A DNA stretch of 15,322 bases from Puniceicoccaceae bacterium (GTDB lineage Bacteria; Verrucomicrobiota; Verrucomicrobiia; Opitutales; Puniceicoccaceae). Positions 132 to 15,322 of this stretch are shown piece by piece. Positions within the stretch are counted from its first letter, which is position 1. Each line of letters opens with the position of its first letter. The stretch is from NCBI GenBank assembly GCA_046541615.1, contig JBKHCX010000056.1, forward strand, positions 1 through 15,322, read 5' to 3'. The translations under genes and the position numbers were made by a program. Below the pieces are notes generated by a model that saw nothing but the letters and a program-made list of their open reading frames with translations, had not been told where the DNA came from and ran no database searches.

Positions 132-1334
132 TCAGCGGTGGCCGCGGCGGATCTCCGCGCCGGCGAAACTGATCCGGACCCGGCAGATTCTCTTGATCCG
201 GCTTTCGATCCGGCCCGTCTCCGGATCGACCCGCTCGGGGATGGTCTCCTTCCGGACATCGACCACCGCGTGGAAGCCCCGTTCGGAGAAGACATCGATC
301 AGCATCGCTATGCCGAGGTGGTTGGAATACAGGGAACTCTCGGTGTTGATGAGCGCCATGCCGGAAATGGCGTGCCGCCGGATGACCGGCATGAAGTAGG
401 TCTCGATGTCCCGGACGACCTCCGCGAAAAGCTCCCGGTGCTCCTCCTCATAGGAATCGAGCCGGTTGACGAGTTCCTGCCGGGCGTGGAGGGCGATGTC
501 CGAGGCGAGGGGCAGGGCGCCGATGCGGCGGTACGTGGCTTCGCCCAGCTCCAGCGAACTCTGGTAGCGCATCTCCTCGACGATGCGCGCCTGCACCTCG
601 GGGATCGGCCCCTGCGCGTCGATGTAATGGTAGTGGAAAACCTCCCGCAGCTCTTTCAGGGCGTGGTAGGTGATCTCCTTGAAGGTGCGGTAGCGCCCCC
701 GGGCCGCCTCTTCCGAGAGGTCGGTCTTGCGGATCTCCCTTTCCTCGCCCACCCCGGAGGCGCGGACTTTCTCGTTGTGGGCGATCGACTCCCGTCCGCG
801 CGCGAGCTGCCGCCTGACGCTCTCGGCCTCGTCAATGAACAGAACGATGATGTGGAAACGGCACTTGGGGAACGGATTCCGTCCGCGCCCGAGGTGTTCC
901 TGGTGCAGAAGGTTCAGACGGCTGTAGAGGAGTTTCACGCACTCGACCTGCACCTTCGTGCGGGGGAACCCATCGACGATCGCCCCGTGCTCGAACTCCG
1001 GATCGAGCAACCGCCGCAGGACCAGATCGGTCACCTCCCGGTCGCCGGCCAGCACGCCGGCGTCCATCCTCTTCTTCGCCTCCGGGCTTTTCAGCAACTG
1101 GCTCACGGTGATCGGGTCCGCGGTCAGGTCCCGCAGCCCCATCAGGAAACGGGTGTTGGTGCCCTTCCCCGCCCCCGGAGGGCCGTTGAGCCAGAAGATC
1201 TCCTTTGGGAACCGGAGGTTCTCCCGCCCCAGTTCCTCCTCCAGCCGGGTCCAGACCCGTTCGAAAATCAGGTGCGGATCCTTGACCTCCAGATCATGGA
1301 CCTGGGTTTGCGCTGCGGATTGCGGAGAACTCAT
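132..1334 (-). CDS. Adenylate kinase-family (NMP kinase) protein with an uncharacterised C-terminal extension of about 140 aa (400 aa from ATG 1334)
   Basis: P-loop GPPGAGKGT (nt 1158-1184). The motif IVDGFPRT matches the adenylate kinase LDGFPRT motif. LID/core arginines are retained ([19 protein letters not shown]), and the tail [18 protein letters not shown] resembles the AK C-terminus. The ORF extends to 1463, but the extra 43 aa are Arg/Gly/Pro-rich and look non-coding, so ATG 1334 is preferred. No Shine-Dalgarno is seen, so the start is uncertain. Confidence 0.7.
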
Positions 1335-1444
1335 GCCGGGCGAAGCTGGAGAACTTCTCTCCGGCAGGCAAGGCTTGAACCGGGTGCCCCGGGGGCGCGG
1401 GACAACGCCGCGGGACAGGAGCGTCCCGCCTCCCCCGGCCCGAG

Positions 1445-1464
1445 GGTGGACACTCCTGTCCACC
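1445..1464. promoter_or_regulatory. Perfect 8-bp palindrome GGTGGACA-ctcc-TGTCCACC in the divergent intergenic region; candidate operator or 5' leader hairpin
   Basis: The inverted repeat was read directly: 1445-1452 pairs with 1457-1464. A second perfect 7-bp stem, GCGGGAC-aggagc-GTCCCGC, sits at 1410-1429. Both lie between the divergent starts at 1334 (-) and 1552 (+). Function is not established. Confidence 0.25.
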
Positions 1465-1551
1465 GCTTCCCGCCGAATTGACCTTTCGCTTGCGTCCGCG
1501 AAGTTTTCCTTCTTGTTGCCTTAAGGAATTGTTTTATCCTTCCAACCAGAA

Positions 1552-1893
1552 ATGCCGAATATCATGCAGATCAAAGCCTACCTGAAACCCACCTGCGGAT
1601 GGAGCCGCGGGGTCCGCGCCATGTTCAAGAAATACGATCTCGAATACGAGGATCTCGACATCGTCGGGAACCGCGATCTCTACGAGGAGATGGTCCGCAA
1701 GTCCGGACAGCCGCTCTCTCCCTGCGTCGAGATCGACGGGATCATGCTCGCGGACGTCAGCGGGGAGGAGGTGGAGAATTATCTAGCCGCCAACAATCTG
1801 ATCGAAAAATCCAACGCCGAAGCCGATTACCCGACGAACCAGTCCTGCTCCGCGCACCGCCGCGAGGATCCGCGGACCGTCCGTTTCTTCTGA
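1552..1893 (+). CDS. Glutaredoxin-like thioredoxin-fold protein with a monothiol CGWS active-site motif (113 aa)
   Basis: KPTCGWS (Cys15 at nt 1594-1596) sits at the position of the Grx CxxC/CGFS motif after the first beta strand. A downstream SP-CVEIDG segment resembles the Grx cis-Pro/VFIxG region. The size and layout are typical of small Grx proteins. The start could also be ATG 1564. No obvious Shine-Dalgarno is present. Confidence 0.6.
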   Translation: MPNIMQIKAYLKPTCGWSRGVRAMFKKYDLEYEDLDIVGNRDLYEEMVRKSGQPLSPCVEIDGIMLADVSGEEVENYLAANNLIEKSNAEADYPTNQSCSAHRREDPRTVRFF

Positions 1894-2046
1894 TCCGCCG
1901 CGCGGGTCGGAATCGAAGGCGCGCGGATGGCCGCGCGTGCGACAGAACGCCGCCTCACCCCGGCGCGGAACCCTCCGAGGCCCGCCTTCGGGCCCGGAAA
2001 ATGCTCTTCCTCTCCCGGCGTTGCGCCGGTATCCACTGATCGCAGC

Positions 2047-5000
2047 ATGAACTTCGAACATCCATCCCCCCTCTACACGGCCGACCAGGAGCACGACGCC
2101 TGCGGGGTGGGCTTTATCGCCAACTCCAACGGCCGCCGTTCCCACTGGATTCTGGAGCAGGCGATCCAGGGGCTGATCAACCTCGCCCACCGGGGCGCCA
2201 TCGACGCCGATGCCGTCACCGGGGACGGCGCGGGCGTCCTCACCCAGATCCCCCACGCGATTTTCGAAGAGTTCCTCAGGCAGTCCGGCGAAGGCCCCGT
2301 CGCCCGGGAGGATCTGGGGGTCGGCATGGTCTTTCTCCCCCGCACCGACGAGAAGGAAACGAGGCACGCCCGGCGGATCCTCGAAACCGCCGTCAAACGC
2401 GAGGGGCTCCGCTTCGTGGCCTGGCGGGCGGTGCCCGTCGAGCCGGGCTGTCTCGGCAAGAAGGCGGAACAGACCCGCCCCGGCATCGCCCAGGCGTTGG
2501 TCGGGCGGCCCGGCGGGATGTCCCCCGACGCCTTCGAGCGCGCGCTCTTCCTCGCCATGCGGACGTCCATGAAGGCGGCGGCGGACGCGAACCTGACCGA
2601 TTTCTACGTGGTGAGCTTCTCCCACCGGACGATCACCTACAAGGGCCTGCTCAACGCCCCGCAGGTGCGCGAGTTCTTCCCGGATCTGCGCTCGCCCGCC
2701 TTCGAGACCGCCTTCGCGATCTTCCACCAGCGCTTCGCCACCAACACCCTCCCCGACTGGAAGAAGGCCCAGCCCTACCGCATGCTCGCCCACAACGGCG
2801 AGATCAACACCATCAAGGGCAACCGCAATCTGATGCGCGCCCGCGAGTTCTCGTCCAACCACGGCGTGTGGGGCGACCGCTACAAGGACCTGAGCCCGAT
2901 GATCCAGCAGGACATGTCGGACTCGACCAGTCTCGACAACACCCTGCAGCTCCTGAGCGTCGGCGGGCGCACCTGCCTGCACGGGCTCGGCATGATGATC
3001 CCCCCGGCCTGGGAGAACGATCCCCACCTGCCCGCGAAGGTGCGCGACTTCTACCGCTGCCATTCGACGATGATGGAGCCGTGGGACGGCCCGGCGGCGG
3101 TGGCCTTCACCGACGGGCGCTTCGTCGGCGGTCTCCTCGACCGGAACGGGCTCCGCCCCTGCCGCTACAAGATCTACGGGGACGGGACCGTCGTCCTCGG
3201 CTCGGAGGCCGGACTCATCCGCGACTGGGGTTCGCCCGTGGTCGAGGCGGGCCGGCTCGGCCCGGGCCGGATGATCGCCATCGACATCGGGGAGAACCGC
3301 ATTCTCCGCGACGCGGACATCAAGAACCATCTCGCCGACCGCGAAGACTACTCCGGCTGGTGCGCGCGCTCCCTCATCCCGCTGGAGAACCTGCTCGCCG
3401 GCCGGGCGGAGCGCTCCCCCGGAACGACCCTGCCCGCCGACCGGATCGCCCCGCTGCGGGTCTGCTTCGGCTACAGTTCCGACGAAGAGAACCTCATCCT
3501 GCGGCCGATGATCCGGACGGGCATGGAGGCCGTGGGCTCCATGGGCGACGACACGCCCCTGGCCGTGCTTTCGCGCCGCAACCGTCTCCTCTTCACCTAC
3601 TTCAAGCAGCTTTTCGCCCAGGTCACCAACCCGGCCATCGACTCCCTGCGCGAGCGCTCGGTCATGTCGCTCAACGTGAATCTCGGGGGTCGGCTCGGCC
3701 TGTTCGAGCCCCTCGGGGCCGACCACCCGTTCCTCACCCTGGAATCGCCCCTTCTTTTCCGCCGGGAATTCGAGGCGGTCTGCCAAAGCGATGTCTTCCG
3801 CGGCCGGACGGCCCGGATCGACGCGACCTTCCCCGTGTCCGGCGGAGCGGACGTCCTCGAGTCGGAGATCAACCGGATCGTGTCCGAGGCGGCCGGGGCC
3901 GTGAAAGACGGAAAGGCGCTGATCGTCATCTCCGACCGGGAGACCTCCGCCGACCGCGCGCCCGTCCCCTCCCTCCTCGCCACCGGGGCCGTCCACCAGG
4001 GGTTGATCCGGGCCGGTCTCCGCCTCCGCTGCGACCTGATCACCGACACGGCCGAGGCCCGCGACGTCCACCAGTTCGCCTGCCTTCTCGGTTTCGGGGC
4101 GAACGCCGTCCACCCGTGGCTGGCCGAGGAGTTGACCGCGGGGGTGATCGCGAACGACGGGGATGAGCCGGTTCTGCCGGAGATGGCCCTGGCCAACTAC
4201 CGGAAGGCGGTGGACAAGGGCATTCTGAAAATCATGGCGAAGATGGGGATCAGCACCCTCTACAGCTACCAGGGCGCCGAGATCTTCGAGGCCATCGGCA
4301 TCAGCTATCCGGTCGTGCGCCAGTGCTTCCGCGGGACCGCCTGCCCCATCAACGGGCTGGGCTACCGCCAGATCGCGGCCGAGACCCTCGCCCGGCACGA
4401 AAAGGCGTACCGCTCGGCGGACGTGGGCCCCTGGGACGAGGGCTACTACAGCGTCGTCAAGCGCGGCGAGGCCGAGTTCCACGGGTGGAATTCCAAGGTC
4501 GTCGGCGGTATGAACAAGATCTTCCGGGGCGATCCGCGGAAATTCGACCGCTTCCTCCCCTTCAAGGAGGCCAGCGAGCACCACCAGCCGCAGTCGGTCC
4601 GCGACCTGCTCAAGTTCCGCTTCGTCAACAAACCGATTTCGCTCGAGGACGTGGAGCCGGTCGAGGACATCCGGCGGCGCTTCACCACCGCGGGCATGTC
4701 CCTCGGCGCGATCTCCCCGGAGACCCACGAAACGCTCGCCCTGGCGATGAACAGCATCGGCGGGAAATCCAACTCCGGCGAAGGGGGCGAGGATCCCCGC
4801 CGGTTCCGGATCCGCCCCGACGGATCGAGCGCCAACAGCGCGATCAAGCAGGTCGCCTCCGGGCGCTTCGGCGTGACGGCCGCCTACCTGGCCAACGCCC
4901 GCGAGATCGAGATCAAGATCGCCCAGGGCGCGAAACCCGGCGAGGGGGGGCAGCTCCCCGGTCACAAGGTCACCGAACTGATCGCCGAACTGCGGTTCAG

Positions 5001-6585
5001 CGTGCCCGGCGTGACCCTCATCTCCCCCCCGCCCCACCACGACATCTACTCGATCGAGGACCTCTCGCAGCTCATCTACGACCTCAAGCAGGTCAACCCG
5101 CGGGCCAAGGTCTGCGTGAAACTCGTCGCCTCCTCCGGCGTGGGCACGATCGCCGCCGGGGTCGCCAAGGCCTACGCGGACGTGATTCTCATCGCCGGGC
5201 ACGACGGGGGCACCGGCGCCTCGCCCGTTTCCTCGATCAAGAACGCCGGCTCCGCCTGGGAGATCGGCCTGGCCGAGGCCCACCAGGTTCTGCTCATGAA
5301 CGATCTCCGCAGCCGGGTCGTCCTCCGCACGGACGGCGGGATGAAGACGGGGCGGGACATCGTCATCGCCTCCATTCTCGGGGCCGAGGAATACAACTTC
5401 GGCACGGCGGCCCTCATCGCCACCGGGTGCGCGATGTTCCGCGTGTGCCACAAGAACACCTGCCCGGTGGGCGTCGCGACCCAGCGCGAGGATCTGCGCA
5501 AGAAGTTCAAGGGCAAGCCGGAGAACCTGGTGAACTATTTCAACGCGATCGCCGAAGACGTCCGCCGGATCATGGCGAACCTCGGCGTCCCGGCGGTGGA
5601 CGAGCTGGTCGGGCGGACCGATCTCCTGGAGCAGATCCGCGATCCGAAGAACCCGAAGACCGAGACCATCAATTTCTCGGGCATCCTCCACAACCCCGAT
5701 CCGAGCGGCGTCCTCTCCCGCGTCCACACGAGGGAGCGCAACGACCGCATCGGCAACGACGGGAGCTGCGACGACCAGATCCTGCAGGAGGCCATCGAGA
5801 CCGTCACGCACCTGGCCCCGGAATACTCCGGGGAATTCCGGGTGAAGAACATCCACCGGAACATCGGCACGCGCCTCTCCGGCCAGATCGCCTACATGCA
5901 CGGGAACAACGGAATGCCGCCGGGCACGATGCACCTGACCTTCACCGGGAGCGCGGGCCAGAGCTTCGGCACGTTCCTCGTCCAGGGGGTCCGGCTCCAC
6001 CTCTTCGGGGAGGCGAACGACTACGTCGGCAAGGGGATGAACGGCGGCGAGATCATCGTGCGCCCCCGCGAACGCGAGACCTTCGCCTGGGAGAAGAACA
6101 TCATCATCGGCAACACCTGCCTCTACGGAGCGACCGGGGGGCTCCTGCTCGCCGCCGGACAGGCGGGGGAGCGCTTCGCCGTGCGCAACAGCGGCGGAAC
6201 CGCCGTCGTCGAGGGTGTGGGCGACCACGCCTGCGAGTACATGACCGCGGGCGCGGTCGTGGTGCTCGGAGACACCGGCACGAACTTCGCGGCCGGCATG
6301 AGCGGCGGCCTCGCCTTCGTGTTCGACCGGGAGGAACGCCTCGACAGCCGCCTCAACCCGGAAATGGTCTCCCTGGCCCGCCCCGACTCGCCGGAGGAGA
6401 CCGAATCGCTGCGCGAACTGGTCGGACTGCACGCCCGCCTAACCGAAAGCCCGCACGCGCGGCGGCTGCTTGCGGACTGGGAGAACACCCTGCCCCGCTT
6501 CCGCAAGGTGGTCCCCCACCGCGCCGACGGCGTGCCCGAGCCCTTCCTGCGCTTCGGCGAGACCCTGAAAGGCGTCGCGACCTAG
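2047..6585 (+). CDS. gltB: Glutamate synthase large (alpha) subunit, 1512 aa
   Basis: A short propeptide precedes the Ntn-amidotransferase Cys (HDACGVGFIA). Central and FMN-domain motifs are present (NSGEGGEDP, KIAQGAKPGEGGQLPG, ISPPPHHDIYSIEDL). The 3Fe-4S cysteines are present (CAMFRVCHKNTCPVGVATQ). The C-terminal beta-helix GXGXG region is present (GNTCLYGATGG, AGERFAVRNSG). The ORF opens at 1927, but ATG 2047 gives the expected N-terminus. Confidence 0.95.
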   Translation: MNFEHPSPLYTADQEHDACGVGFIANSNGRRSHWILEQAIQGLINLAHRGAIDADAVTGDGAGVLTQIPHAIFEEFLRQSGEGPVAREDLGVGMVFLPRTDEKETRHARRILETAVKREGLRFVAWRAVPVEPGCLGKKAEQTRPGIAQALVGRPGGMSPDAFERALFLAMRTSMKAAADANLTDFYVVSFSHRTITYKGLLNAPQVREFFPDLRSPAFETAFAIFHQRFATNTLPDWKKAQPYRMLAHNGEINTIKGNRNLMRAREFSSNHGVWGDRYKDLSPMIQQDMSDSTSLDNTLQLLSVGGRTCLHGLGMMIPPAWENDPHLPAKVRDFYRCHSTMMEPWDGPAAVAFTDGRFVGGLLDRNGLRPCRYKIYGDGTVVLGSEAGLIRDWGSPVVEAGRLGPGRMIAIDIGENRILRDADIKNHLADREDYSGWCARSLIPLENLLAGRAERSPGTTLPADRIAPLRVCFGYSSDEENLILRPMIRTGMEAVGSMGDDTPLAVLSRRNRLLFTYFKQLFAQVTNPAIDSLRERSVMSLNVNLGGRLGLFEPLGADHPFLTLESPLLFRREFEAVCQSDVFRGRTARIDATFPVSGGADVLESEINRIVSEAAGAVKDGKALIVISDRETSADRAPVPSLLATGAVHQGLIRAGLRLRCDLITDTAEARDVHQFACLLGFGANAVHPWLAEELTAGVIANDGDEPVLPEMALANYRKAVDKGILKIMAKMGISTLYSYQGAEIFEAIGISYPVVRQCFRGTACPINGLGYRQIAAETLARHEKAYRSADVGPWDEGYYSVVKRGEAEFHGWNSKVVGGMNKIFRGDPRKFDRFLPFKEASEHHQPQSVRDLLKFRFVNKPISLEDVEPVEDIRRRFTTAGMSLGAISPETHETLALAMNSIGGKSNSGEGGEDPRRFRIRPDGSSANSAIKQVASGRFGVTAAYLANAREIEIKIAQGAKPGEGGQLPGHKVTELIAELRFSVPGVTLISPPPHHDIYSIEDLSQLIYDLKQVNPRAKVCVKLVASSGVGTIAAGVAKAYADVILIAGHDGGTGASPVSSIKNAGSAWEIGLAEAHQVLLMNDLRSRVVLRTDGGMKTGRDIVIASILGAEEYNFGTAALIATGCAMFRVCHKNTCPVGVATQREDLRKKFKGKPENLVNYFNAIAEDVRRIMANLGVPAVDELVGRTDLLEQIRDPKNPKTETINFSGILHNPDPSGVLSRVHTRERNDRIGNDGSCDDQILQEAIETVTHLAPEYSGEFRVKNIHRNIGTRLSGQIAYMHGNNGMPPGTMHLTFTGSAGQSFGTFLVQGVRLHLFGEANDYVGKGMNGGEIIVRPRERETFAWEKNIIIGNTCLYGATGGLLLAAGQAGERFAVRNSGGTAVVEGVGDHACEYMTAGAVVVLGDTGTNFAAGMSGGLAFVFDREERLDSRLNPEMVSLARPDSPEETESLRELVGLHARLTESPHARRLLADWENTLPRFRKVVPHRADGVPEPFLRFGETLKGVAT

Positions 6586-6756
6586 CCCATGGCCGCATAT
6601 CCGGCAACCGCCAGGCAAGGTTCGGTGTCCAGGCTTCAGCCTGCAGCGTCGGAGCGGTCGCCCGCCCGGGTCCGATTATTCGTTTGCCTCATCCGAACCG
6701 TTCGCTACCCTGCGATCATTCCTCGATCGCCCGACCGACCACCACTCCCATCCGTC

Positions 6757-7242
6757 ATGCGCCCCACGATTTTTCTCGCAATCTTTCTCCTTCCGGTGAT
6801 TCCGGCCGCGGCGGAGGATTGGCTGCTCGAGGAGCCCCTCTTCGACGCGGCCTACTATTCCTCCGTCCACCCCGATTTGGAACGATCCCTCGGCGACGAT
6901 GTCCGGGAGCTGCGCAAGCACTGGCTTCGGTTCGGGATCGAAGAGGGGCGGCGGAGTTCGCCGGTCATGGACGTATCGTGGTATGTCGCCCGGAATCCGG
7001 ATCTGCAGAACGCCTTCGGCAGGGACAACTACCGCGACGCACTCCGGCACTGGCTCGAACACGGCCTGGGCGAAGGCCGGGCCGCACATCCGGATTTCGA
7101 CCCGCGCTGGTATCTCCAGGTGAATCCGGATCTCGCGGCGGCCTTCGGGGCGAACAATTACAAGCGGGGGGTCGAGCACTACCTCGAATTCGGTCTGGAG
7201 GAAGGACGCATGGGCGCTCCGCCGAAACGAATGCGGGAGTAG
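6757..7242 (+). CDS. Small secreted or exported protein of unknown function made of three tandem repeats of about 43 aa (161 aa)
   Basis: From ATG 6757 there is an N-terminal signal-peptide-like segment, MRPTIFLAIFLLPVIPAAA|ED. Three repeats follow with consensus FDxxWYxxxNPDLxxAFGxxNYxxxxxHWLxxGxxEGR. The upstream part of the ORF (6589-6756) is Arg/Pro/Ser-rich and unlikely to be coding. Confidence 0.6.
   Translation: MRPTIFLAIFLLPVIPAAAEDWLLEEPLFDAAYYSSVHPDLERSLGDDVRELRKHWLRFGIEEGRRSSPVMDVSWYVARNPDLQNAFGRDNYRDALRHWLEHGLGEGRAAHPDFDPRWYLQVNPDLAAAFGANNYKRGVEHYLEFGLEEGRMGAPPKRMRE
6841..7215 (+). repeat. Three protein-level tandem repeats inside the 6757-7242 CDS
   Basis: R1 is FDAAYYSSVHPDLERSLGDDVRELRKHWLRFGIEEGR. 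R2 is MDVSWYVARNPDLQNAFGRDNYRDALRHWLEHGLGEGR. R3 is FDPRWYLQVNPDLAAAFGANNYKRGVEHYLEFGLEEGR. The repeats are diverged at the DNA level. Confidence 0.8.
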
Positions 7243-7345: not shown

Positions 7346-8545
7346 CTACCGGAAGCCCTTGGGCATCGGAATCTTGATCCCGCGCCGCAGGAAGGTCGGT
7401 TTGTCCAGGTCCACTTCGTTGTATTCATCGACGGCCATGCGGCCGAAGAGTCCGCGCTCGTTGTCCTCGAGGAGGGAGTCGAATTCGGTCTGCACCCGGA
7501 CGGGACCCGCCGTGGCGCGTCTGCCGTCGAGCTTGGAGGCGTGCACCTCGACCGGGCGGGAGCGGTAGAGGGGTTCCGGCTGCGACGAAAGATCCGTCCG
7601 CGCCAGAACGGTGACCTCCAGGTCCGCGCCGAGGGCGGGGTCCTCCCAGAACCCGACCACGGCGTCCTCCCGCGAATCGAAGAGTTTGGTCACCCCGGCG
7701 GCCAGCTCCGCGAAGGCGGCGGCGGACAGAGCGCCCGCCGAACCGATGCTCACCAGCAGGCGGTCGGCGCGCGCCCGCTCGATCCCCGGCGAGCGAAGGG
7801 GGCATTCGAAAATGCCCTTCACCGCGGCCGCCGCCCCCTCCGCCAGGGGCACGCGGGCGGTCGAGAAGACGATCCGGCTCTCCGGCCCTTTCAGGGCGGC
7901 GCGGAAGGTGGCCAGATCCACCGACATCTTTCCGGGCCGGAACAGGGGACCGGCCAGCGCGGTGACCGCCCGCGACATCCATTCGTCGGAGGCGTCGAAT
8001 ATCCGGTCGGCCCGGTCCGATTCGCCGGCCTCCTGGAAGAGGAGATCGTTGGGCAGCTCGATGACGCAGTCGGCCGATTTACGGATGGCGGCGAGCGCCT
8101 CGCGGGCGAGCTTCGCCGGCCGCCGCCCCTCGAATTCGAAAGGGGTGGATACCACGGCGACCGTCGGACAACCGGTCTCGCCGATCAGGCCGGCCATCAC
8201 CGGAAGCGCGCCCGAGGCGCACCCGCGCCCGAGACACCCGACCAGGACGACCAGTTCGCCGCCGCCTAGGGCCGCGGCGATGAGAGGCCGGTCGCTTTCG
8301 GCGGCGAGACGGCCCATCTCTCCGTCCCCGCCGCAGCCGAGCCCGCGCACGAGAGCCTTCCCCAGCCGGACCGAGCGGATCTCCGGATACCGGTCGAGTT
8401 CGCGGGCGTCGGTGTCGAACCCGACGGGCACGATCTCCGGCCAGGCCGTTCCGCGAAGCCGGTCAACGACGCCAAGCGCCCCCCCGCCCACGGCCACGAG
8501 CCGAACGCCGGGTCTCTCCGCGTCGTTGCCGATGCCATCCTTCAT
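7346..8545 (-). CDS. ftsZ: Divergent FtsZ homologue (399 aa) with atypical nucleotide-binding motifs
   Basis: It occupies the last position of the dcw cluster directly after ftsA, with a TGATG stop/start overlap at 8543-8547. It is collinear with FtsZ: VRLVAVGGGALG, GFDTDAREL, VRGLGCGGDGEMGR, TPFEFEGRR, LPNDLL, FRPGKMSVD. The C-terminal DLDKPTFLRRG matches the conserved FtsA-binding peptide. The ORF runs up to 9088, but that part overlaps ftsA out of frame and is Arg/Pro-rich. Confidence 0.85.
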   Translation of the reverse strand: MKDGIGNDAERPGVRLVAVGGGALGVVDRLRGTAWPEIVPVGFDTDARELDRYPEIRSVRLGKALVRGLGCGGDGEMGRLAAESDRPLIAAALGGGELVVLVGCLGRGCASGALPVMAGLIGETGCPTVAVVSTPFEFEGRRPAKLAREALAAIRKSADCVIELPNDLLFQEAGESDRADRIFDASDEWMSRAVTALAGPLFRPGKMSVDLATFRAALKGPESRIVFSTARVPLAEGAAAAVKGIFECPLRSPGIERARADRLLVSIGSAGALSAAAFAELAAGVTKLFDSREDAVVGFWEDPALGADLEVTVLARTDLSSQPEPLYRSRPVEVHASKLDGRRATAGPVRVQTEFDSLLEDNERGLFGRMAVDEYNEVDLDKPTFLRRGIKIPMPKGFR

Positions 8546-9750
8546 CACGTCCCCCGCAGGAATCGCGTCACCTTGCCGACCACTCCGGCGGGACGCTGGT
8601 TGTTCTCCCGTTTCTCGGCCTGGCCCTCGAGGGCGTAGTGGAGCACTCCGAGGACCGTGCTGTACTCGGCCGCCCGCAGCTCGTCGGCCACCCAGTCGGG
8701 GTTGCCGGCGAACCGCGCCGGGAAGCCGAAGACCCGCTCCGCCAGATCGGCGCACCGCTCGAGGCGGGCGCCGCCGCCGGTCAGGAGCGCGCGGACGGCC
8801 CCCGACTTGAGCCGGGAGGCGCCGCACTCCTCGCGGATCAATTCGAAGAGTTCCTCCAGCCGCACTTCGAGAATGCGGTTGATGGACGAGGCGTAGAGGG
8901 ACTTGTCGCCGATCTTCAGGTCCCCGTAGAGGTGCAGGGTCCGGCCCTGGTCCTCGGGCAGCACGGTGGCCGCCCCGTGGCGGAGCTTCAGATCCTCCGC
9001 GCTGTCGCGCACGATCCGCAGGCCCACGGAAAGGTCGTTGGTCATGTGCTCGCCGCCGACCGGAATCGATCCGGTCCGGACGATGCATCCCTTGTCGTAG
9101 AAGGCGTAGTCCGTGGTGCCGCGGCCGATGTCGATCACGAGGCAGCCGGATTCCTTTTCCTCCTCGGTGGCGACCATGCAGGCGGAGGCCACGCTGGAGA
9201 CGATGACATCCTCCACCTTGATGTTCTGGCTGTTGACCGCGTGGATGTGCTCGGCGACGGCCTGGGAGTCGGCGTGGAGCAGCCAGTAGGTGACCGCCAG
9301 CTCCTCCCCCCGGAAGCCGGCCGGCTGCTCGACGACCCGCCCGTCCAGCTCGTAGTGGTTGCGGATGAAGTGGATGTAGAGCCGGTCGGCGCCGATCTCC
9401 TTGCTCTTGGCCTCGGCGTTCACGCGGTCCACGTCGGCGCGGGTCACGCGGTTGTCCGGGCTCCGCACCCGGATCCGGGCCGGGTGGGACAGGCCCTGGA
9501 GATGGGAACCGGCGATCGCCAGGTAGGAACTCTCGATATTGGTCCCGGCGCTGGTCTCGGCGCGGTCGAGCGCCTCCCCCACCCCGTCGCTGACCTCGCG
9601 GAAATTGAGAATCCGGCCCTTGGAAACCCCGCGCGATTCGACCTCGGCCTTGCCGATGATGTTCAGGCTCTGGTCCTCGTAGATCTCACCGACCAGGACT
9701 TTGATTTCCCGGCCTCCGATTTCGATGGCTGCTACGACTTTACCCGACAT
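8545..9750 (-). CDS. ftsA: Cell division protein FtsA (actin-like ATPase), 401 aa
   Basis: The N-terminus AAIEIGGREIKVLVGE is the phosphate-1 motif. DIGRGTTDYA is phosphate-2. LTGGGARL is the adenosine motif. The C-terminal amphipathic tail is GVVGKVTRFLRG. A strong Shine-Dalgarno lies upstream. Confidence 0.95.
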   Translation of the reverse strand: MSGKVVAAIEIGGREIKVLVGEIYEDQSLNIIGKAEVESRGVSKGRILNFREVSDGVGEALDRAETSAGTNIESSYLAIAGSHLQGLSHPARIRVRSPDNRVTRADVDRVNAEAKSKEIGADRLYIHFIRNHYELDGRVVEQPAGFRGEELAVTYWLLHADSQAVAEHIHAVNSQNIKVEDVIVSSVASACMVATEEEKESGCLVIDIGRGTTDYAFYDKGCIVRTGSIPVGGEHMTNDLSVGLRIVRDSAEDLKLRHGAATVLPEDQGRTLHLYGDLKIGDKSLYASSINRILEVRLEELFELIREECGASRLKSGAVRALLTGGGARLERCADLAERVFGFPARFAGNPDWVADELRAAEYSTVLGVLHYALEGQAEKRENNQRPAGVVGKVTRFLRGT

Positions 9751-9755
9751 CGGTA

Positions 9756-9761
9756 CTCCTT
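9756..9761 (-). promoter_or_regulatory. Shine-Dalgarno sequence AAGGAG for ftsA
   Basis: The minus strand reads gtgaaAAGGAGtaccgATG, with a 5-nt spacer to ATG 9750. This is the clearest ribosome-binding site in the window. Confidence 0.8.
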
Positions 9762-9848
9762 TTCACAGATCGGCCTCCGCATGTCGAGACCGCGGAAGTT
9801 GATTTGCGGCCATCGCGGCAACCGTCTTCGCTCTCCGAGCTCCGCCGA

Positions 9849-9932
9849 GTCAAGAGCACGAGGCCCTACAGGAATGCAAATTCCTAAATTTTCCTTGTTT
9901 CGGAAAAACGGGTAGGGCCGCGTGCTCTTGAC
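9849..9932. repeat. 84-nt imperfect palindrome with two nested hairpins (predicted three-way junction) in the ftsQ-ftsA spacer
   Basis: Outer arms 9849-9869 and 9912-9932 pair at 20 of 21 positions. The inner hairpins are AGGAAT-gcaa-ATTCCT (9870-9885) and TTTTCC-ttgtttc-GGAAAA (9889-9907). The inner 42 nt are AT-rich (15/42 G+C by hand count). The structure is certain from the sequence. The function (RNA element, protein site or REP-like repeat) is unknown. Confidence 0.5.
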
Positions 9933-10108
9933 GGCCATAACCCGGCTTGTCCAGCGTCTTGTCGCCCGTAGCTCGCTGAGGGAGAGGAAAGCCCCATGCG
10001 GAGGAGGCAGGGCGGCGGCTGTTGCGCGCGTGCCGCAGCCCAATCCCCGAGAACGGAAAAACGGGAGGAATTTCCATCCTGGCTCCCCATACCGATGGCT
10101 GCGCTCGC

Positions 10109-11020
10109 TCACCCTGCCGGATCCTCCCCGTCCAGAAGCACCGGCACCGAGTCGTCGAAACGCAGATCGACCCGCTCGATCCTGTCGATGCCCCGCTCGC
10201 CGGTCAGCGTCAGGATGTCCTGCAGGCGCATCAACTGGTCGGAGAGTCCCTCCGTCGCGAAAAGCGCTTCCCGCACCCGGGTGGACCGGACGCGGATCGT
10301 GGAAAAGGCGGCGGCCGGATCGGGGTCGTAGAGGGAGAGATCGACGATCCGCCACGACCGGAAGACCTCCGGAAAGCCGCTGCGGGCGAGATCGACGAGT
10401 TCGGCGACCGTGTGGAACCCCGGCACCGGAGCGTATCCGCCGGGTCGCTCGACCAGCGTGACCCCGGTGAGAAAGGGGAGCCGCGAGACCTCGGCCGGTT
10501 CGAGGCCGATCCCGGGAAAAACCGATCCGTCCCCCGCCACGAAGAGGGTGATCCGGCTGCCGGAGGCGTCCCGGGTGAGCAGCCGCAGCACCGGCTTGTG
10601 CTCCGAGATGCGCACTTCGAGGGTCTCCGGAAACCGGCGGCGGACGACGCACTCCCGGACCTGGGGATGGGCGGCCAACCGTTCCCGCAGCCGGAAGATA
10701 TCCGTCTGGAGGAGGGTCGCCCCCTCGGCCAGGACCAGCCGGTCCGCCAGCCATTCCTCGTCGAGCGTGCCGTCGGTCTCGAAAGCGACCTCCTGTATCC
10801 GGAACTCCTGACCGCCCCCCAGAATACGCTCCGGCTCGAAAAGGAGAAGGTAGGTCAGGAAGATGATCGCGATCGAAAAGCAGACCGCCCCCGCCCACAC
10901 GAGAAGGCTGCGCCCGCGGGTGCGCCCGACCAGACCGGAGGAGCGGGGCACTTTCTGCTGGATGCTCTTCCACGAGCGGACCCGGACCGGACCGGGGGGC
11001 GGGGATTTCCTGCGCATCAT
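10109..11020 (-). CDS. ftsQ: Cell division protein FtsQ (bitopic, POTRA domain), about 303 aa
   Basis: It has a basic N-terminus, then a single TM helix (LLVWAGAVCFSIAIIFLTYLLLF), then a POTRA-like region (FRIQEVAFETDGTLDEEWLADRL...RRRFPETLEVRISEHKP). It lies between ddl and ftsA. ATG 11020 overlaps the ddl stop (ATGA), and GGAG lies just upstream. The adjacent ATG at 11017 is equally possible. The ORF extension to 12088 overlaps ddl and was rejected. Confidence 0.85.
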   Translation of the reverse strand: MMRRKSPPPGPVRVRSWKSIQQKVPRSSGLVGRTRGRSLLVWAGAVCFSIAIIFLTYLLLFEPERILGGGQEFRIQEVAFETDGTLDEEWLADRLVLAEGATLLQTDIFRLRERLAAHPQVRECVVRRRFPETLEVRISEHKPVLRLLTRDASGSRITLFVAGDGSVFPGIGLEPAEVSRLPFLTGVTLVERPGGYAPVPGFHTVAELVDLARSGFPEVFRSWRIVDLSLYDPDPAAAFSTIRVRSTRVREALFATEGLSDQLMRLQDILTLTGERGIDRIERVDLRFDDSVPVLLDGEDPAG

Positions 11021-11946
11021 CCTCTCCGGCGGTGGAAACGGTTCAGGGCCGGCCGGACGAGTTCGGCGGCGAGATCCTCGAACGACAGACCGCGGCAGGC
11101 CGCGCTCTTCGGCAGGAGACTCTCGGCGGTCAAACCCGGAATGGTGTTGATTTCGAGAAAACAGGGCCCCTCGTCGTCGAGGCGGAAATCCGCCCGGGCG
11201 AAGTCGCGGCAGCCGCACACGGCGAACACGGTCTCGGCCCACCAGCGGACGACCGCCTCCACGCCGGGATCGAGCACCGCGGGCCATCGGTACTCGGTCA
11301 GGCCGGCCGTGTACTTGTGCCGGTAGTCGTAAACGCCCCCCTGCGGCAGGATTTCGACCACGCCCTGCCCGATTCCGTTGAGAAGGCCGATCGACAACTC
11401 GCGGCCGTCGATGAAGGTTTCGAGAATCCACCGCTGGTCCGGGAGGGCGTCGAGCCGGCGGAGCAACTCGCCGATCCCCCGGACCACCGCCAGGTGGGTG
11501 CTGCTGCCACCTGCGACCGGCTTGATCACGATGCGGTCGCCGAGACGGTCGCGGATCCGGCCGGCGTCCGGCGCCTCCCCCGGCTCCAGGACGATCGACT
11601 CCGGCACCCGCACCCCCGCGGCGGCCGCCGTCTTCTTCGTGCGCTCCTTGTCCATGCACAGAGCGCTGGATATCGAATCCGATCCGGCGTATTCGAACCG
11701 GCCCCGTTCGAGAAGGGTCTGGAGCGCGCCGTCCTCTCCGAACTCGCCGTGGAGGGCCGGGAAGACCACGCTTGCCGCAGGATCGAGGAAGGCGGGCAGC
11801 GCCGCCTCGCGCAGCTCGACGGCGTTCACCGGGAAAGACTCCTCCAGCGCGCCGATCAGCGCGGCACCCGTCTTCAGGGAGACATCGCGCTCTGGACCGA
11901 CGCCTCCGTAGAGAACGGTGACCGGGGTATCGTCCTCGGGGATCAT
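11017..11946 (-). CDS. ddl: D-alanine--D-alanine ligase, 309 aa
   Basis: Motifs seen: VLYGGVGPERDVSLKTG, ALHGEFGEDGALQTLLE, IKPVAGGSSTHLAVV, FLEINTIPGLTAESLLPKS. ATG 11946 gives an N-terminus matching E. coli Ddl and shares one base with the murC-murB stop (TGATG). Confidence 0.9.
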   Translation of the reverse strand: MIPEDDTPVTVLYGGVGPERDVSLKTGAALIGALEESFPVNAVELREAALPAFLDPAASVVFPALHGEFGEDGALQTLLERGRFEYAGSDSISSALCMDKERTKKTAAAAGVRVPESIVLEPGEAPDAGRIRDRLGDRIVIKPVAGGSSTHLAVVRGIGELLRRLDALPDQRWILETFIDGRELSIGLLNGIGQGVVEILPQGGVYDYRHKYTAGLTEYRWPAVLDPGVEAVVRWWAETVFAVCGCRDFARADFRLDDEGPCFLEINTIPGLTAESLLPKSAACRGLSFEDLAAELVRPALNRFHRRRG

Positions 11947-14183
11947 CACGGAACGGTGCGAAAGGAATCGGTCGGCGGCGGAACCTCGGCCGGATTGCCC
12001 GGAGAGAGGAACCGCACCTCCGGCTCGAGCCAAACGCCCGAGCGGAGCCGCACCCGCTCGCGAATCTCGGAGAGGAGCGCGAGAACATCGGCGGCGCGGG
12101 CGTTCTTGTCCGGCAGAAGGAAATTGGCGTGTTTTTCGGAGACCCGGACCCGCCCGAGGCGATAGCCTTTGAGCCCGGCTCGGTCGATCAGACGGCCGGC
12201 CGAATCCCCCTCCGGATTGCGGAACATGCAGCCCGCGCTCGCCCCGCCGGGCTGGCTCCCCCGCCTGCGGATCGAGTACTCCCGCATCCTCTGCCGGATC
12301 ACTTCCGGATCCTGCCTTTCCGTTCCCTCAAACACGGCGCGGATTATGCAAAGACCCTCCAGGCCAGGGCAAGAACGATAGCCGAAGGAAAGGTCGCTCC
12401 GGTCGAAGCACACGAGCTTTCCACCCGGGTCGAGGGCCTCCACCCGCACGGCCCGGTCCCCGATCCATCCACCCATGGCGCCCGCGTTCATGCGGAGGCC
12501 GCCGCCCACCGTACCGGGGATCCCCTCCAGGAATTCGAATCCCGCGAGGCCCTGTTTCGCCGCCGACCGGGCCAGGGCGGGGAGGGCGCAGCCGGCGCCG
12601 GCGGCGATCCGGAGCGAACCCCCTTCCGCCGCTTCCACCGACTCCCAGGCCGGACCTTTCAGGTGGACGACGAGACCGTCGAACCCCTCGTCCGACACCA
12701 GGAGGTTCGACCCGTTGCCGAGAAAGACGACGGGGATCCGCAGCATCCCCGCCGCGCGGAGCAGCCAGCGCAGGGCCGCGACCCCGTCCGGCTCCGCGAA
12801 CGCCGCGGCCCTGCCACCGATCCGCAGCGTACAGGCCCGTTCGAGCGGCTCGCCGCCGCGCACGGTTCCGGCGGCCAGATTGGCCTCGGCCAGGCGCAGC
12901 AACGCGGGCACCGGCCGGCCGCCCTCCCCGGCGAGGGCCGCCAGAACCGAGGCCCACTCGTTCGCGTCGCCCGCCCCGACGAAGGCGAACGTGCCGACCG
13001 GCCCGGCCCCCTCATCCTCCCCGAATCCGGGGAAGTCGCCCAGGCCGCGTATCCGGGACACCCGCACGCCCCCGGCCTCCAGCCCGGCCTCGATCCGCGC
13101 CAGGGCGTCCCCGCCGCCGGTAGCCTCTCCCGCGCCGTAAACGGAGTGCAGCCCCACCTCGGCGAGCCCCGAGAGCGCCTCGACGAACTCTCCCGCGAAA
13201 CGGGTCGTGCGGCTGAAGCGGTGCGGCTGGAAGTACACCCGCAGGGGCGCCGGGAAATCCCCTCGGGCGAGCCAGCCGAGAAAAGCCGCCACCTCGCGGG
13301 GATGGTGGGCGTAGTCCTCGACCACGGCGAAGCGCCCGCTCCGGGCGTGGATGGTCTGCCGCCGCCATACGCCGGGGAACCCGGCCGCCGCGTCGCCTCC
13401 GGCGGGCCGTCCCGCGGCGGCCGCGAAGGCCGCGCGGGCGGCGGCCTCGTTCGTCGCGGCAAAATCCGCCACGTCCACCGGAAAGGCCGTCCGCCCCGGG
13501 GAGTCCGGCCACTCCGGAGCGCCGTCGCCCGGGGCCGGCTCCGGATGGACCACGGCGGACCGCGTCCGCCCGGCGAGCCCGGCCCAGGTCGCCCGGATCG
13601 CCCCCGCGTCCCGGTAGCGGTCGGCGTGATCCCAGTCGAAATTCAGGAACAGCGTCACCTCGGGGGAGAAACCGTCGATCGTCCCGTCGCTCTCGTCGAT
13701 CTCGGCGACCAGCCACTCCGCCCCGCGGTTCCGGGCGGGCGGCAGACCGGCCCCGGGCAGCCCCCCGATCACGTGGTCGGCGGCCCATCCCTCGCGCCCG
13801 GCCAGGTGCGCGATCAACGCGGTGGTCGTGGTCTTTCCATGACTGCCCGCCACGGCCAGAAGCTTCCGCCCCGCCGCGATCCGGGCCAGGAGTTCCCCCC
13901 GGCGGAGGACGACCGGCGGCGGGTCGTTCTCCGCGAGACGCCGGCGCAAGGGGTGGTCGGCGGAGATGGCGCTGGATACCACTAGGAATCCGCACCGCGC
14001 CGCCGCGCGTGGCTCCGGCTCGAGCGCGACCCCTCCCTCCCGCAGCAGGCGCTCGGCCCGCGGCGTAAGGGCGTCGTCCCACCCGCTCACCTCCGCTCCG
14101 CCCTCCTTCAGAAAGAGGGCGAGCGGGAGCATCCCCATCCCGCCGATCCCGAGCAGGAAAAACCGTTCGCCGCGCACGTTCAC
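11946..14183 (-). CDS. murC/murB: Bifunctional fusion: UDP-N-acetylmuramate--L-alanine ligase (MurC, N-terminal) and UDP-N-acetylenolpyruvoylglucosamine reductase (MurB, C-terminal), about 745 aa
   Basis: MurC part: FLLGIGGMGM, AGSHGKTTTT, EIDESDG, NFDWDHADRY, EDYAHHPREV. MurB part begins around nt 12850: TLRIGGRA, LGNGSNLLV, GIPGTVGGGLRMNAGA, FGYRS, ASAGCMFRNP, VSEKHANFLL, WLEPEVRF. It is one uninterrupted frame. The proposed GTG start at 14183 overlaps the murG stop (GTGA), with GGGAGG upstream. GTG 14177 is an alternative. The ORF extension to 14363 was rejected. Confidence 0.9.
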   Translation of the reverse strand: MNVRGERFFLLGIGGMGMLPLALFLKEGGAEVSGWDDALTPRAERLLREGGVALEPEPRAAARCGFLVVSSAISADHPLRRRLAENDPPPVVLRRGELLARIAAGRKLLAVAGSHGKTTTTALIAHLAGREGWAADHVIGGLPGAGLPPARNRGAEWLVAEIDESDGTIDGFSPEVTLFLNFDWDHADRYRDAGAIRATWAGLAGRTRSAVVHPEPAPGDGAPEWPDSPGRTAFPVDVADFAATNEAAARAAFAAAAGRPAGGDAAAGFPGVWRRQTIHARSGRFAVVEDYAHHPREVAAFLGWLARGDFPAPLRVYFQPHRFSRTTRFAGEFVEALSGLAEVGLHSVYGAGEATGGGDALARIEAGLEAGGVRVSRIRGLGDFPGFGEDEGAGPVGTFAFVGAGDANEWASVLAALAGEGGRPVPALLRLAEANLAAGTVRGGEPLERACTLRIGGRAAAFAEPDGVAALRWLLRAAGMLRIPVVFLGNGSNLLVSDEGFDGLVVHLKGPAWESVEAAEGGSLRIAAGAGCALPALARSAAKQGLAGFEFLEGIPGTVGGGLRMNAGAMGGWIGDRAVRVEALDPGGKLVCFDRSDLSFGYRSCPGLEGLCIIRAVFEGTERQDPEVIRQRMREYSIRRRGSQPGGASAGCMFRNPEGDSAGRLIDRAGLKGYRLGRVRVSEKHANFLLPDKNARAADVLALLSEIRERVRLRSGVWLEPEVRFLSPGNPAEVPPPTDSFRTVP

Positions 14184-15322
14184 AACCCCTCCCGGAGCGC
14201 CCCCCCGGGCTCCTCCCGTTTCCCGGCGGCGGCGCTCTCGGCCAGCTCCTCCAGATCGGCCACCAGATCCTCCTTGCGGTTGGAGTCCTCGATCAGTTCG
14301 AGGTTCGTCCGGATCCGGTCCAGCAGGCCGGGATCCCGGAGAAAGGCCACCACCTCGTCGCACAGGCTATCAAGGTAATCCTGCTCGACCACCACGCACC
14401 CCCCCCGCGCCTCGAAATAGCGGGCGTTCTCCCTCTGGTGCCCGTCCGCCGCGTACGGATACGGAACCAGGATCGAGGGCAGGGCGCAGCGCGTCAATTC
14501 GGCAATGGCCCCCGCCCCGGCGCGCGACACCGCCAGGTCCGCCGCCGAGAGCACCAGGTGCATCGCATCGCAAAAGCCCACCGAATGGCAGCGCCGGACG
14601 CAGCCGGACGAATCCTTCTCCTCCAGCACGCCCTCCGCGCCCTTGCCCAGCCCGCGGACGCAGTAGATATCGACCCCCTCTCCCAGAAGCTTCCGGTAGT
14701 GCCGGTCCACCCAGTCGTTGAGCGCCGACGCCCCCTGGCTGCCGCCGCACACGACGAGCAGGAATCCATCGCGGGAAAGCCCCAGTTTCTCGCGGGCCCC
14801 GCGCCGGGAAATCCGCCGGAACTCGCGGCGGACGGGGTATCCGAAATGGCGGACGGCCCCGGGGGAGACCCCGGCCAGGCGCACTCCCGTCGGCAGGTAC
14901 ACCCGCCGGGCGAAACGCTTGAGCAGCCGGATCGCCCGCCCCGGCCTGCGGTTCGCCTCGTGGAGGGCCACCGGCAGCCGCAGGAGCCGCGCCGCCAGCA
15001 CGATCCCCACGGAGAGAAAGCCGCCGAAAGCAAGAACCAGATCCGGGTTCTCCCGGCGCAGCAGCCGCCGGCCGGAAAGAAGCCCCTTGACCGACCCGCT
15101 GATAAAGCGGCCCAACTCCCCCGGGCGCCTGCCGAAGGCCGCTCCCGGCAGCCGTACGAAATCCAGATGGGCGTACTTGCGGACGAGGCGCGAATCGACC
15201 TCCTTGTAGCTGATCAGCAGCGAGCACCGGTGACCCCTCGCCAACAGCTCCTCCGCGACCGCGATTCCAGGGGCAAGGTGCCCGCCCGTGCCCCCGCACG
15301 CTATCAGAAATTTGCGTCCCAT
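14180..15322 (-). CDS. murG: Undecaprenyl-PP-MurNAc-pentapeptide-UDP-GlcNAc GlcNAc transferase MurG, 380 aa
   Basis: The N-terminus ACGGTGGHLAPGIAVAEEL is the MurG G-loop. The C-terminal half carries VCGGSQGA and RAGAGAIAELT. The ATG is the last three bases of the window (15320-15322), so the gene is complete but its upstream context is missing. Confidence 0.93.
   Translation of the reverse strand: MGRKFLIACGGTGGHLAPGIAVAEELLARGHRCSLLISYKEVDSRLVRKYAHLDFVRLPGAAFGRRPGELGRFISGSVKGLLSGRRLLRRENPDLVLAFGGFLSVGIVLAARLLRLPVALHEANRRPGRAIRLLKRFARRVYLPTGVRLAGVSPGAVRHFGYPVRREFRRISRRGAREKLGLSRDGFLLVVCGGSQGASALNDWVDRHYRKLLGEGVDIYCVRGLGKGAEGVLEEKDSSGCVRRCHSVGFCDAMHLVLSAADLAVSRAGAGAIAELTRCALPSILVPYPYAADGHQRENARYFEARGGCVVVEQDYLDSLCDEVVAFLRDPGLLDRIRTNLELIEDSNRKEDLVADLEELAESAAAGKREEPGGALREGL

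Follow-up and report, generated by a model that had tools for sequence, protein, structure and literature searches.

The divergent ftsZ gene and its product

The window (the whole stretch of DNA that was analysed, 15.3 kb, G+C 68.6%) was taken from contig JBKHCX010000056.1 of a Puniceicoccaceae bacterium, and its minus strand bears the distal part of the division and cell wall (dcw) cluster (Table 1). The subject of the present study is the ftsZ gene at the end of this cluster, whose product departs from canonical FtsZ in the motifs for GTP binding and hydrolysis. The source organism was assigned to the family Puniceicoccaceae or its vicinity (class Opitutae, Verrucomicrobiota), since the closest matches of its FtsZ came from Puniceicoccus vermicola and an uncultured Puniceicoccaceae metagenome-assembled genome (MAG). 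The stop codon of ftsA overlaps the start codon of ftsZ (TGATG at 8543-8547), and ftsZ is judged to be translationally coupled to ftsA, as had been proposed in the initial annotation.

The product of the open reading frame (ORF) was aligned by phmmer with the E. coli/Klebsiella FtsZ in PDB over residues 14-324 (E = 2e-33), in agreement with the earlier by-eye alignment of the 8545->7346 translation over the whole globular domain. Both alignment blocks with all the motifs (window residues 14-217) were gap-free, and the assignment of the motif columns is therefore secure; the numbering used here equals that of E. coli FtsZ plus 1 and that of S. aureus FtsZ. The score against Pfam Tubulin (PF00091) was 69.2 bits (cutoff 33), no match to the Pfam FtsZ_C profile was found in the protein, and the score against the TIGR00065 equivalog was 141.4 bits, below the cutoff of 295.2. 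The respective TIGR00065 scores of its close relatives (the clade described below) and of the canonical FtsZ of Actomonas were 126-154 and 306 bits. The identity to canonical bacterial FtsZ (E. coli, S. aureus and B. subtilis) was about 28%, and neither the tubulin signature [SAG]GGTG[SAT]G nor the T7 pattern NxDxxD was found. With homology over the GTPase domain, a two-domain fold, vertical descent in the dcw slot and the C-terminal peptide all present, the gene is identified as a vertically inherited ftsZ orthologue.

For the fold, an AlphaFold2 model was built on a 43-sequence alignment. The predicted local distance difference test (pLDDT) value was about 90 for residues 10-320, followed by a low-confidence linker (322-376) and then a short C-terminal helix. 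When the model was compared with PDB by Foldseek, the top matches were all FtsZ (GTP/GDP structures), with target-normalised template modelling scores of 0.90-0.93 and a root-mean-square deviation of about 2 A over about 309 aligned columns, so that both FtsZ domains are covered by the match. According to the model, the two-domain FtsZ fold is kept, although it escapes the FtsZ_C sequence profile.

Table 1. Positions of the ftsZ gene, its motifs and the neighbouring dcw genes in the window (aa, amino acid residues; clade, the 20 relatives sharing the variant motifs)
Feature	Position (nt)	Strand	Basis
ftsZ orthologue, 399 aa, divergent Puniceicoccaceae type	7346..8545	-	ORF, Pfam Tubulin, TIGR00065, phmmer to PDB, AlphaFold2 fold
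T1 loop, aa 20-25, GGGALG (canonical GGGGGN)	8471..8488	-	gap-free E. coli FtsZ alignment; clade consensus GGGALR
T2/H2, aa 44-48, DTDAR (canonical NTDAQ): N44D, Q48R; D46 kept	8402..8416	-	alignment; R48 in 20/20 relatives and window
T3 loop, aa 68-76, GLGCGGDGE (canonical GLGAGANPE)	8318..8344	-	E. coli FtsZ alignment
T4 signature position, aa 106-112, GRGCASG (canonical GGGTG[ST]G)	8210..8230	-	alignment; clade G[RK]G[CF]x[ST]G 20/20
Codon 143 (H5), Pro replacing arginine-finger-like R143 (E. coli R142)	8117..8119	-	alignment; P143 in 20/20 relatives and window
T6-H7 segment with N166, F183, D187	7985..8050	-	invariant in 24-sequence alignment including canonical relatives
T7 synergy loop, aa 208-213, SVDLAT (canonical NxDxxD; NVDFAD): N208S, D210 kept, D213T	7907..7924	-	E. 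coli alignment
Variable, predicted-disordered linker, aa 320-350	7496..7588	-	pLDDT <50 at 322-336 and 338-376; entropy 1.92 bits
Conserved C-terminal module, aa 351-395, ending in FtsA-type DLDKPTFLRRG (nt 7379-7411)	7361..7495	-	entropy 0.59 bits
ftsA, 401 aa	8545..9750	-	TIGR01174 270 bits (cutoff 176); Pfam FtsA and SHS2_FTSA
ftsQ, 303 aa, POTRA domain	10109..11020	-	Pfam POTRA_1; tblastn with P. vermicola FtsQ, 56% identity
ddl (D-Ala-D-Ala ligase)	11017..11946	-	Pfam Dala_Dala_lig_C and _N; tblastn with P. vermicola Ddl, 71% identity
murC-murB fusion, start approximate	11946..~14183 (fused ORF 11946-14363)	-	Pfam Mur_ligase domains, FAD_binding_4 and MurB_C in one ORF
murG	14180..15322	-	Pfam Glyco_transf_28 and Glyco_tran_28_C

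Changes in the GTPase motifs

The T1, T3, T4 and T7 loops had been described in the initial annotation as degenerate, and in the alignment the four variant motifs did fall on the columns of GGGGGN, GAGANPE, the tubulin signature and NxDxxD, respectively, T4 and T7 at exactly the residues and nucleotides originally assigned. All four loops are non-canonical; the Thr in place of the last Asp of T7 and the GGD of T3, on the other hand, are ancestral states, found in otherwise canonical Opitutae FtsZs. Three further changes, N44D and Q48R in T2/H2 and R143P in H5, were absent from that annotation.

In S. aureus FtsZ, subunit association and hydrolysis depend chiefly on D46, Q48, R143, N208, D210 and D213, among which Q48 locks the K+ site and holds the K+ together with N208; assembly is abolished by D46A, R143Q, N208L, D210N and D213N, and GTPase activity is cut about 6-fold by Q48A and R143K (Ruiz et al. 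2022, PMC8936486). Four of these six residues (Q48, R143, N208 and D213) are replaced in the window FtsZ, and only D46 and D210 remain. In a residue comparison for the features of a pseudo-GTPase, T109 and G107 were likewise found to be replaced, with D46, D210, the fold and the tail kept. Residues N166, F183, D187, E139, P135, F136 and G140 and the T5 motif PFxFEG are invariant, canonical relatives included. N166, F183 and D187, which we take from FtsZ-GDP structures to be guanine base contacts, are read together with E139 as the guanine/ribose contacts, all of which are kept.

C-terminal tail

The C-terminal peptide DLDKPTFLRRG, which had been noted at the outset as an intact FtsA/ZipA-binding motif, fits the pattern of E. 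coli YLDIPAFLRK and belongs to a stretch that varies little or not at all among the relatives (D379, L380, D381, P383, T384, L386, R387, G389, I390 and I392 are invariant in the clade and the canonical Opitutae). By this likeness it is a conserved peptide of the FtsA/ZipA-docking type, with a putative docking function. The last 45 or so residues of FtsZ are conserved from the Opitutaceae to the divergent clade and end in DLDKPTFLRRGIKI. This C-terminal module (QTEFDxLLEHNERGLFGRMxVExYNGVDLDKPTFLRRGIKIPMPK) has about 45 residues, compared with 10-15 residues in the usual FtsZ tail peptide, and its core Q.EF...RG.F...Y.G.DLD.PT.LRRGI.I is common to the Opitutaceae FtsZs. The module may therefore host an extra partner site.

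Distribution and stepwise history

At least 20 full-length relatives with the variant motifs (48-91% identity) were found by database search, in P. vermicola and in Puniceicoccaceae/Opitutia MAGs. They were drawn from NCBI, JGI, ENA and Logan assemblies, and most of the metagenomic ones carry no taxonomic label. The comparison with orthologues that the initial annotation had suggested gave the same pattern in 20 of 20 relatives: G[RK]G[CF]x[ST]G, GLGC[GA]G[DE], R48, P143, D210 and T/S/K/A at position 213. D46 and D210 are conserved in all of them and in the window, and T7 is conserved within the clade apart from position 208, which is S, P, T, G or C. The closest named relative is the 'FtsZ/tubulin family protein' of P. 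vermicola (66-67% identity), and the closest genome locus is that of an uncultured Puniceicoccaceae MAG (P0001/L001, 91%). The gene is carried by five species-level genomes of the GTDB collection (L001-L005) and by P. vermicola, always directly after ftsA.

The same murG-murC/B-ddl-ftsQ-ftsA-ftsZ slot was seen in the 10 related loci inspected (L001-L005, L011, L013, L015, L016 and L017; ddl not called in L015). An otherwise canonical FtsZ occupies the identical slot in Actomonas aquatica (Opitutaceae, L013) and in a Puniceicoccales MAG (P0182, L016). Two intermediates, P0159 (a Puniceicoccaceae MAG, L015) and P0154 (L017), both in the dcw slot, were obtained when 1.84 billion representatives were searched exhaustively with a profile. 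Neighbour-joining trees of two genes, FtsA and FtsZ, from the same 11 loci were congruent; the clade, the clade with P0154, and the clade with both P0154 and P0159 were recovered as nested groups at bootstrap values of 0.975-1.0.

Along these trees the T4 signature passes from GGGTGSG through GGGLASG and GGGFASG (the latter with Q48R/R143P) to G[RK]G[FC]ASG, and the other changes are ordered in four steps. D213T/S came first, with all else canonical (Thr at 213 in 122/122 Opitutaceae-like FtsZs examined); T109L, G110A, A71C, N44D and N208P appeared at the P0159 stage; Q48R together with R143P, N25R and T109F at the P0154 stage; and G107R/K in the clade. The TIGR00065 score drops along the same series (306, 278, 190, 154 and 141 bits). 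The T3 GGD is shared with canonical relatives such as Actomonas, and only A71C in this loop is lineage-specific, being first seen at the P0159 stage. Some relatives whose T4 is otherwise canonical (GxGTGSG) likewise have Arg or Lys at its second position.

The 122 Opitutaceae-like FtsZs with Thr in the column of E. coli D212 and S. aureus D213 (P0022-P0027 and P0038-P0153) are an observation in their own right: residue 213 is regarded as catalytic and conserved across species, and an entire FtsZ family without it is presumably functional. Other non-canonical FtsZs were also encountered. One subtype (P0329, P0330, P0335-P0338, P0344, P0347, P0354, P0387 and others, some named 'Verrucomicrobiae bacterium') has GGGAG[ST]G with the T7 sequence I[EQ][IV]HF, equal to T109A, N208E/Q and D210H. 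A further subtype among the Verrucomicrobia-like matches (P0310-P0316, one named 'Opitutales bacterium') has GGGVGGG with the T7 sequence IDVDFSY.

Selection and evolutionary rate

The ratio of nonsynonymous to synonymous substitution rates (dN/dS) between the window and its 91% relative was 0.136 for ftsZ and 0.113 for ftsA. No frameshift or stop was found in the 20 clade relatives or in the window. In the clade, the column entropy was 0.61 bits for the pocket loops (T1-T7 and H7) versus 1.25 bits for the rest of the globular domain (Mann-Whitney p = 3e-9), about the same ratio as in the canonical Opitutaceae-type FtsZs (0.13 versus 0.32), and T2, T3, T4 and T6 were the most constrained loops. 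These values indicate that the new state of the pocket is one fixed by purifying selection.

FtsZ evolves more slowly than FtsA between the two canonical lineages (p-distances of 0.46 and 0.57, respectively), whereas within the divergent lineage FtsZ was the more diverged of the two proteins in every comparison (0.07 versus 0.05, 0.32 versus 0.19 and 0.50 versus 0.36). Measured against the Actomonas proteins, the window FtsZ (33% identity) has diverged to the same extent as FtsQ, and MurG, Ddl, MurC/B and FtsA are all better conserved. Co-variation in 267 relatives (Q48R/K with N208 or D213; D213 with R143) gave modest Fisher p values that ignore phylogeny and are not relied on here.

Neighbouring genes and other features of the window

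FtsA is intact and scores above its own equivalog cutoff (TIGR01174), unlike the adjoining FtsZ against TIGR00065. Judged by eye, its C-terminus GVVGKVTRFLRGT is likely an amphipathic membrane-targeting tail. The murC-murB fusion was also called in P. vermicola and Actomonas, and a MurB/MurC fusion enzyme is reported for Verrucomicrobium spinosum (PMC4803751).

A 659-aa ORF (10109-12088) was considered as a long FtsQ and rejected, as it consists of ddl (in another frame) and ftsQ with an ATGA overlap at 11017-11020; the apparent tblastn conservation of its N-terminal part is that of conserved DNA translated in the wrong frame. Very long spurious ORFs occur in the window because of the high G+C, for example a 1549-aa ORF antisense to gltB (1783-6432). 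The intergenic gap between ftsQ and ftsA (9751-10108) has 358 bp with a lower G+C (61%); the corresponding gap is shorter in P. vermicola (about 46 bp) and in L001 (about 150 bp). No Rfam match and no sigma-70-like promoter were found in this gap, and one weak terminator-like hairpin lies at 9991-10008; the Rfam, promoter and terminator scans of the whole window gave nothing informative.

Downstream of ftsZ, gltB (glutamate synthase) lies on the other strand, and Pfam and NCBIfam gave no match for a 217-aa ORF (6589-7242, plus strand) that converges on ftsZ. At the matching position in P. vermicola (L011, 11357-18398), right downstream of ftsZ, an insertion sequence element (rve, HTH_Tnp_1) and CTD7, MC3 and LmuB_C genes were found, the latter of which resemble a defence island; in the window this place is taken by the 217-aa ORF and gltB. 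The left end of the window (132-1481) holds ambiguous overlapping ORFs on both strands, with a weak adenylate-kinase/AAA match in the minus-strand ORF only. In L015 (5538-8784), the MAG with the intermediate FtsZ P0159, no ddl was called between murC/B and ftsQ, where it is present in the window, P. vermicola, Actomonas, L016 and L017.

Interpretation and alternatives

The reading we favour, with somewhat more confidence than doubt, is that the gene encodes a functional, vertically inherited FtsZ that has been re-tooled, with an altered and probably slow GTP turnover. Such an FtsZ would be expected to have kept guanine nucleotide binding, head-to-tail polymerisation and tethering through FtsA. 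Nucleotide binding and polymerisation of T7 against the neighbouring pocket are expected because the base/ribose contacts, D46 on the Mg2+ side and the swinging catalytic D210 are kept, and because the pocket loops are the most constrained and T7 is conserved apart from position 208. The phosphate and hydrolysis apparatus would have been rebuilt stepwise, by D213T, then by T109L/F/C, G110A, A71C, N44D and the loss of N208, then by Q48R with R143P, and finally by G107R/K. Since T109, G107, G110, Q48, R143, N208 and D213 are all replaced, GTP hydrolysis is probably impaired, and turnover may be much slower or mechanistically different, with filaments that would be more static than in model bacteria. 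It is conceivable, as a speculation, that the basic residues acquired, namely R48, R/K107 and, in most members, R25, stand in for the lost R143 and for the Q48/N208 K+ site; a fixed positive charge of this kind would explain both the free variation at position 208 and the appearance of Q48R and R143P at the same node.

That an FtsZ of low GTPase activity can sustain division is indicated by E. coli, in which strains with chromosomal D212A/G are viable with about 14% of the wild-type GTPase and about 7% of the treadmilling speed, and G105S lowers the GTPase by 80-90% with normal constriction (bioRxiv 10.1101/077610). Several points weigh on the other side. A23 and L24 in T1 and R107, C/F109 and A110 in T4 are bulky where glycines and a Thr hydroxyl cradle the phosphates, so that nucleotide binding might be lost. 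D213N, N208L and R143Q each abolish assembly of S. aureus FtsZ in vitro (PMC8936486), which would predict a dead protein unless the changes are compensated. The proposed compensation by charge, in turn, is drawn from co-occurrence in one lineage and from weak associations uncorrected for phylogeny.

As an alternative, the protein might be a pseudo-GTPase scaffold with a pocket that holds no nucleotide, forming nucleotide-independent filaments or a static FtsA-docking scaffold and keeping its loops for structure or interface. The replacement of the T1 and T4 glycines by Ala/Leu and Arg/Cys/Ala, the absence of the T109 hydroxyl, the replacement of R143, Q48, N208 and D213, the failure of the FtsZ_C and TIGR00065 profiles and the faster evolution of FtsZ than of FtsA would all suit a scaffold. 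We nevertheless consider it improbable, as no variation is seen at the guanine/ribose contacts N166, F183, D187 and E139, the retention of D46 and D210 in all 20 relatives and the window is hard to explain without nucleotide and Mg2+, the pocket loops are the most constrained at a ratio close to that of canonical FtsZ, and Arg or Lys at the second T4 position is also found beside a canonical GxGTGSG. At the opposite extreme, the changes might compensate one another so fully (R48, R25 or R107 for R143/K+, with D210 alone positioning the water) that the protein is a competent GTPase and a mere lineage variant. The stepwise series with Q48R and R143P at one node, the strong purifying selection on the new residues and the presumably functional D213T families (122/122 Opitutaceae-like) fit full competence; against it, no active protein is known that lacks the signature Thr, N208 and D213 together, the matching single mutants are inactive or very slow, position 208 is unconstrained in the clade and the relative rate is raised, which makes this a doubtful account as well. 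Quite improbable in our judgement is that the dcw copy is a specialised regulator or co-polymer and a canonical ftsZ elsewhere in the genome does the GTPase work. Several non-canonical FtsZ subtypes among the Verrucomicrobia-like matches make paralogy in the phylum conceivable, but the divergent gene sits in the ancestral slot and tracks the ftsA phylogeny, FtsZs with a canonical T4 occupy the same slot in other Puniceicoccales/Opitutaceae lineages, and the tail of the FtsA-docking type is retained. In addition, no canonical protein named Puniceicoccus or Puniceicoccaceae was among the matches listed, a weak point as most entries have no taxon name; the best 120 of 7952 matches in the profile search with canonical Opitutae FtsZ were all Opitutaceae-like.

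The initial annotation had also spoken of eroded nucleotide chemistry and of a possible intermediate toward the loss of FtsZ as in Planctomycetes and Chlamydiae. Decay of this kind would suit a gene that diverges faster than ftsA, scores below profile thresholds and belongs to the Planctomycetes-Verrucomicrobia-Chlamydiae (PVC) superphylum, in which FtsZ loss is known (PMC5147048). It is largely refuted, and very improbable, by the dN/dS of 0.14, the reading frames free of frameshifts and stops, the fixation of the variant residues themselves, the depth of the clade (to 48% identity) and the intact tail and coupling to ftsA; with its loops the most constrained, the pocket is better described as re-tooled and then fixed than as eroded. 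Errors of sequencing or assembly at the motif codons, which had been raised as a caution, are refuted by the identical residues in an independent assembly of 91% identity and by the pattern in 20 relatives from four sources. The re-tooled, slow FtsZ, which corresponds to the other suggestion of that annotation (altered or very slow GTPase activity), is compatible with everything found and preferred over loss.

Comparison with known systems and significance

The window FtsZ shares with canonical FtsZ (E. coli, S. aureus and B. subtilis) the two-domain fold, the position at the dcw end after ftsA, the disordered linker and the FtsA-type peptide, together with T5 PFxFEG, T6 PND, F183/D187 in H7, D46 in T2 and D210 in T7, and differs from it by the absence of the tubulin signature and by Q48R, R143P, N208S, D213T and the T1 GGGALG. 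With the Opitutaceae-type FtsZ (Actomonas aquatica P0022 and Opitutaceae bacterium TAV1/TAV5) it has in common the dcw slot, D213T, the C-terminal module and the T3 GGD (e.g. Actomonas), whereas the Opitutaceae type keeps GGGTGSG, Q48, R143 and N208 and passes or nearly passes TIGR00065 (306 bits). In its location and tail it is also unlike the FtsZl/FtsZm-type paralogues, which are encoded outside the dcw cluster, have no FtsA tail and occur beside a canonical FtsZ. A naturally occurring parallel in the superfamily is beta-tubulin, whose T7 likewise lacks the last acidic residue: it has a Lys where alpha-tubulin has the catalytic Glu, so that the nucleotide at that interface is bound and not hydrolysed; the tubulin heterodimer, however, keeps one active interface, whereas the window FtsZ is presumed to be a homopolymer with the altered interface only, and its signature is lost too. 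The E. coli mutants D212G/A (FtsZ2) and G105S (FtsZ84) have their substitutions in the corresponding T7 position and T4 loop, respectively, and divide at 10-20% GTPase with almost no treadmilling; they are single laboratory mutants with division defects, in contrast to the multiple changes naturally fixed across the clade.

That unusual FtsZ sequences occur in the phylum is known from the dcw FtsZ of Verrucomicrobium spinosum, which was described as diverging from the FtsZs of all other bacteria (Yee et al. 2007, PMC1845146); it keeps GGGTGSG, which the window FtsZ does not. Reviews of PVC division deal with the presence or absence of FtsZ and not with this type (PMC5147048). No account of a Puniceicoccaceae FtsZ or of a signature-less FtsZ orthologue was found in open-access papers, a weak negative. 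The P. vermicola protein is named as an FtsZ/tubulin family member and two MAG copies as 'hypothetical protein'. Because this type scores below the TIGR00065 cutoff, FtsZ can be wrongly recorded as missing when the superphylum is surveyed for its presence or absence.

In the current view, the GTPase activity of FtsZ and the treadmilling driven by it organise the synthesis of the septal wall, and near-universal occurrence is assumed for the tubulin signature and the T7 aspartates. The clade is a counter-example from a culturable lineage, P. vermicola being an isolate, with a dcw-encoded, FtsA-coupled and selected FtsZ without the signature and without four of the six key residues. A bolder proposal, which is tentative and on balance unlikely, is that free-living Puniceicoccaceae have a single FtsZ that binds nucleotide and in which hydrolysis is essentially lost or the K+/R143/D213 mechanism is replaced by a fixed arginine. 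If it were true, their Z-ring would be a natural, selected one that does not treadmill or treadmills very slowly, and the series from Opitutaceae through P0159 and P0154 to the clade would document the dismantling or rebuilding of the mechanism. The lineage may reveal how far cell division depends on the GTPase of FtsZ and how much hydrolysis a Z-ring needs, and it bears on whether arginines can replace the K+/R143 system.

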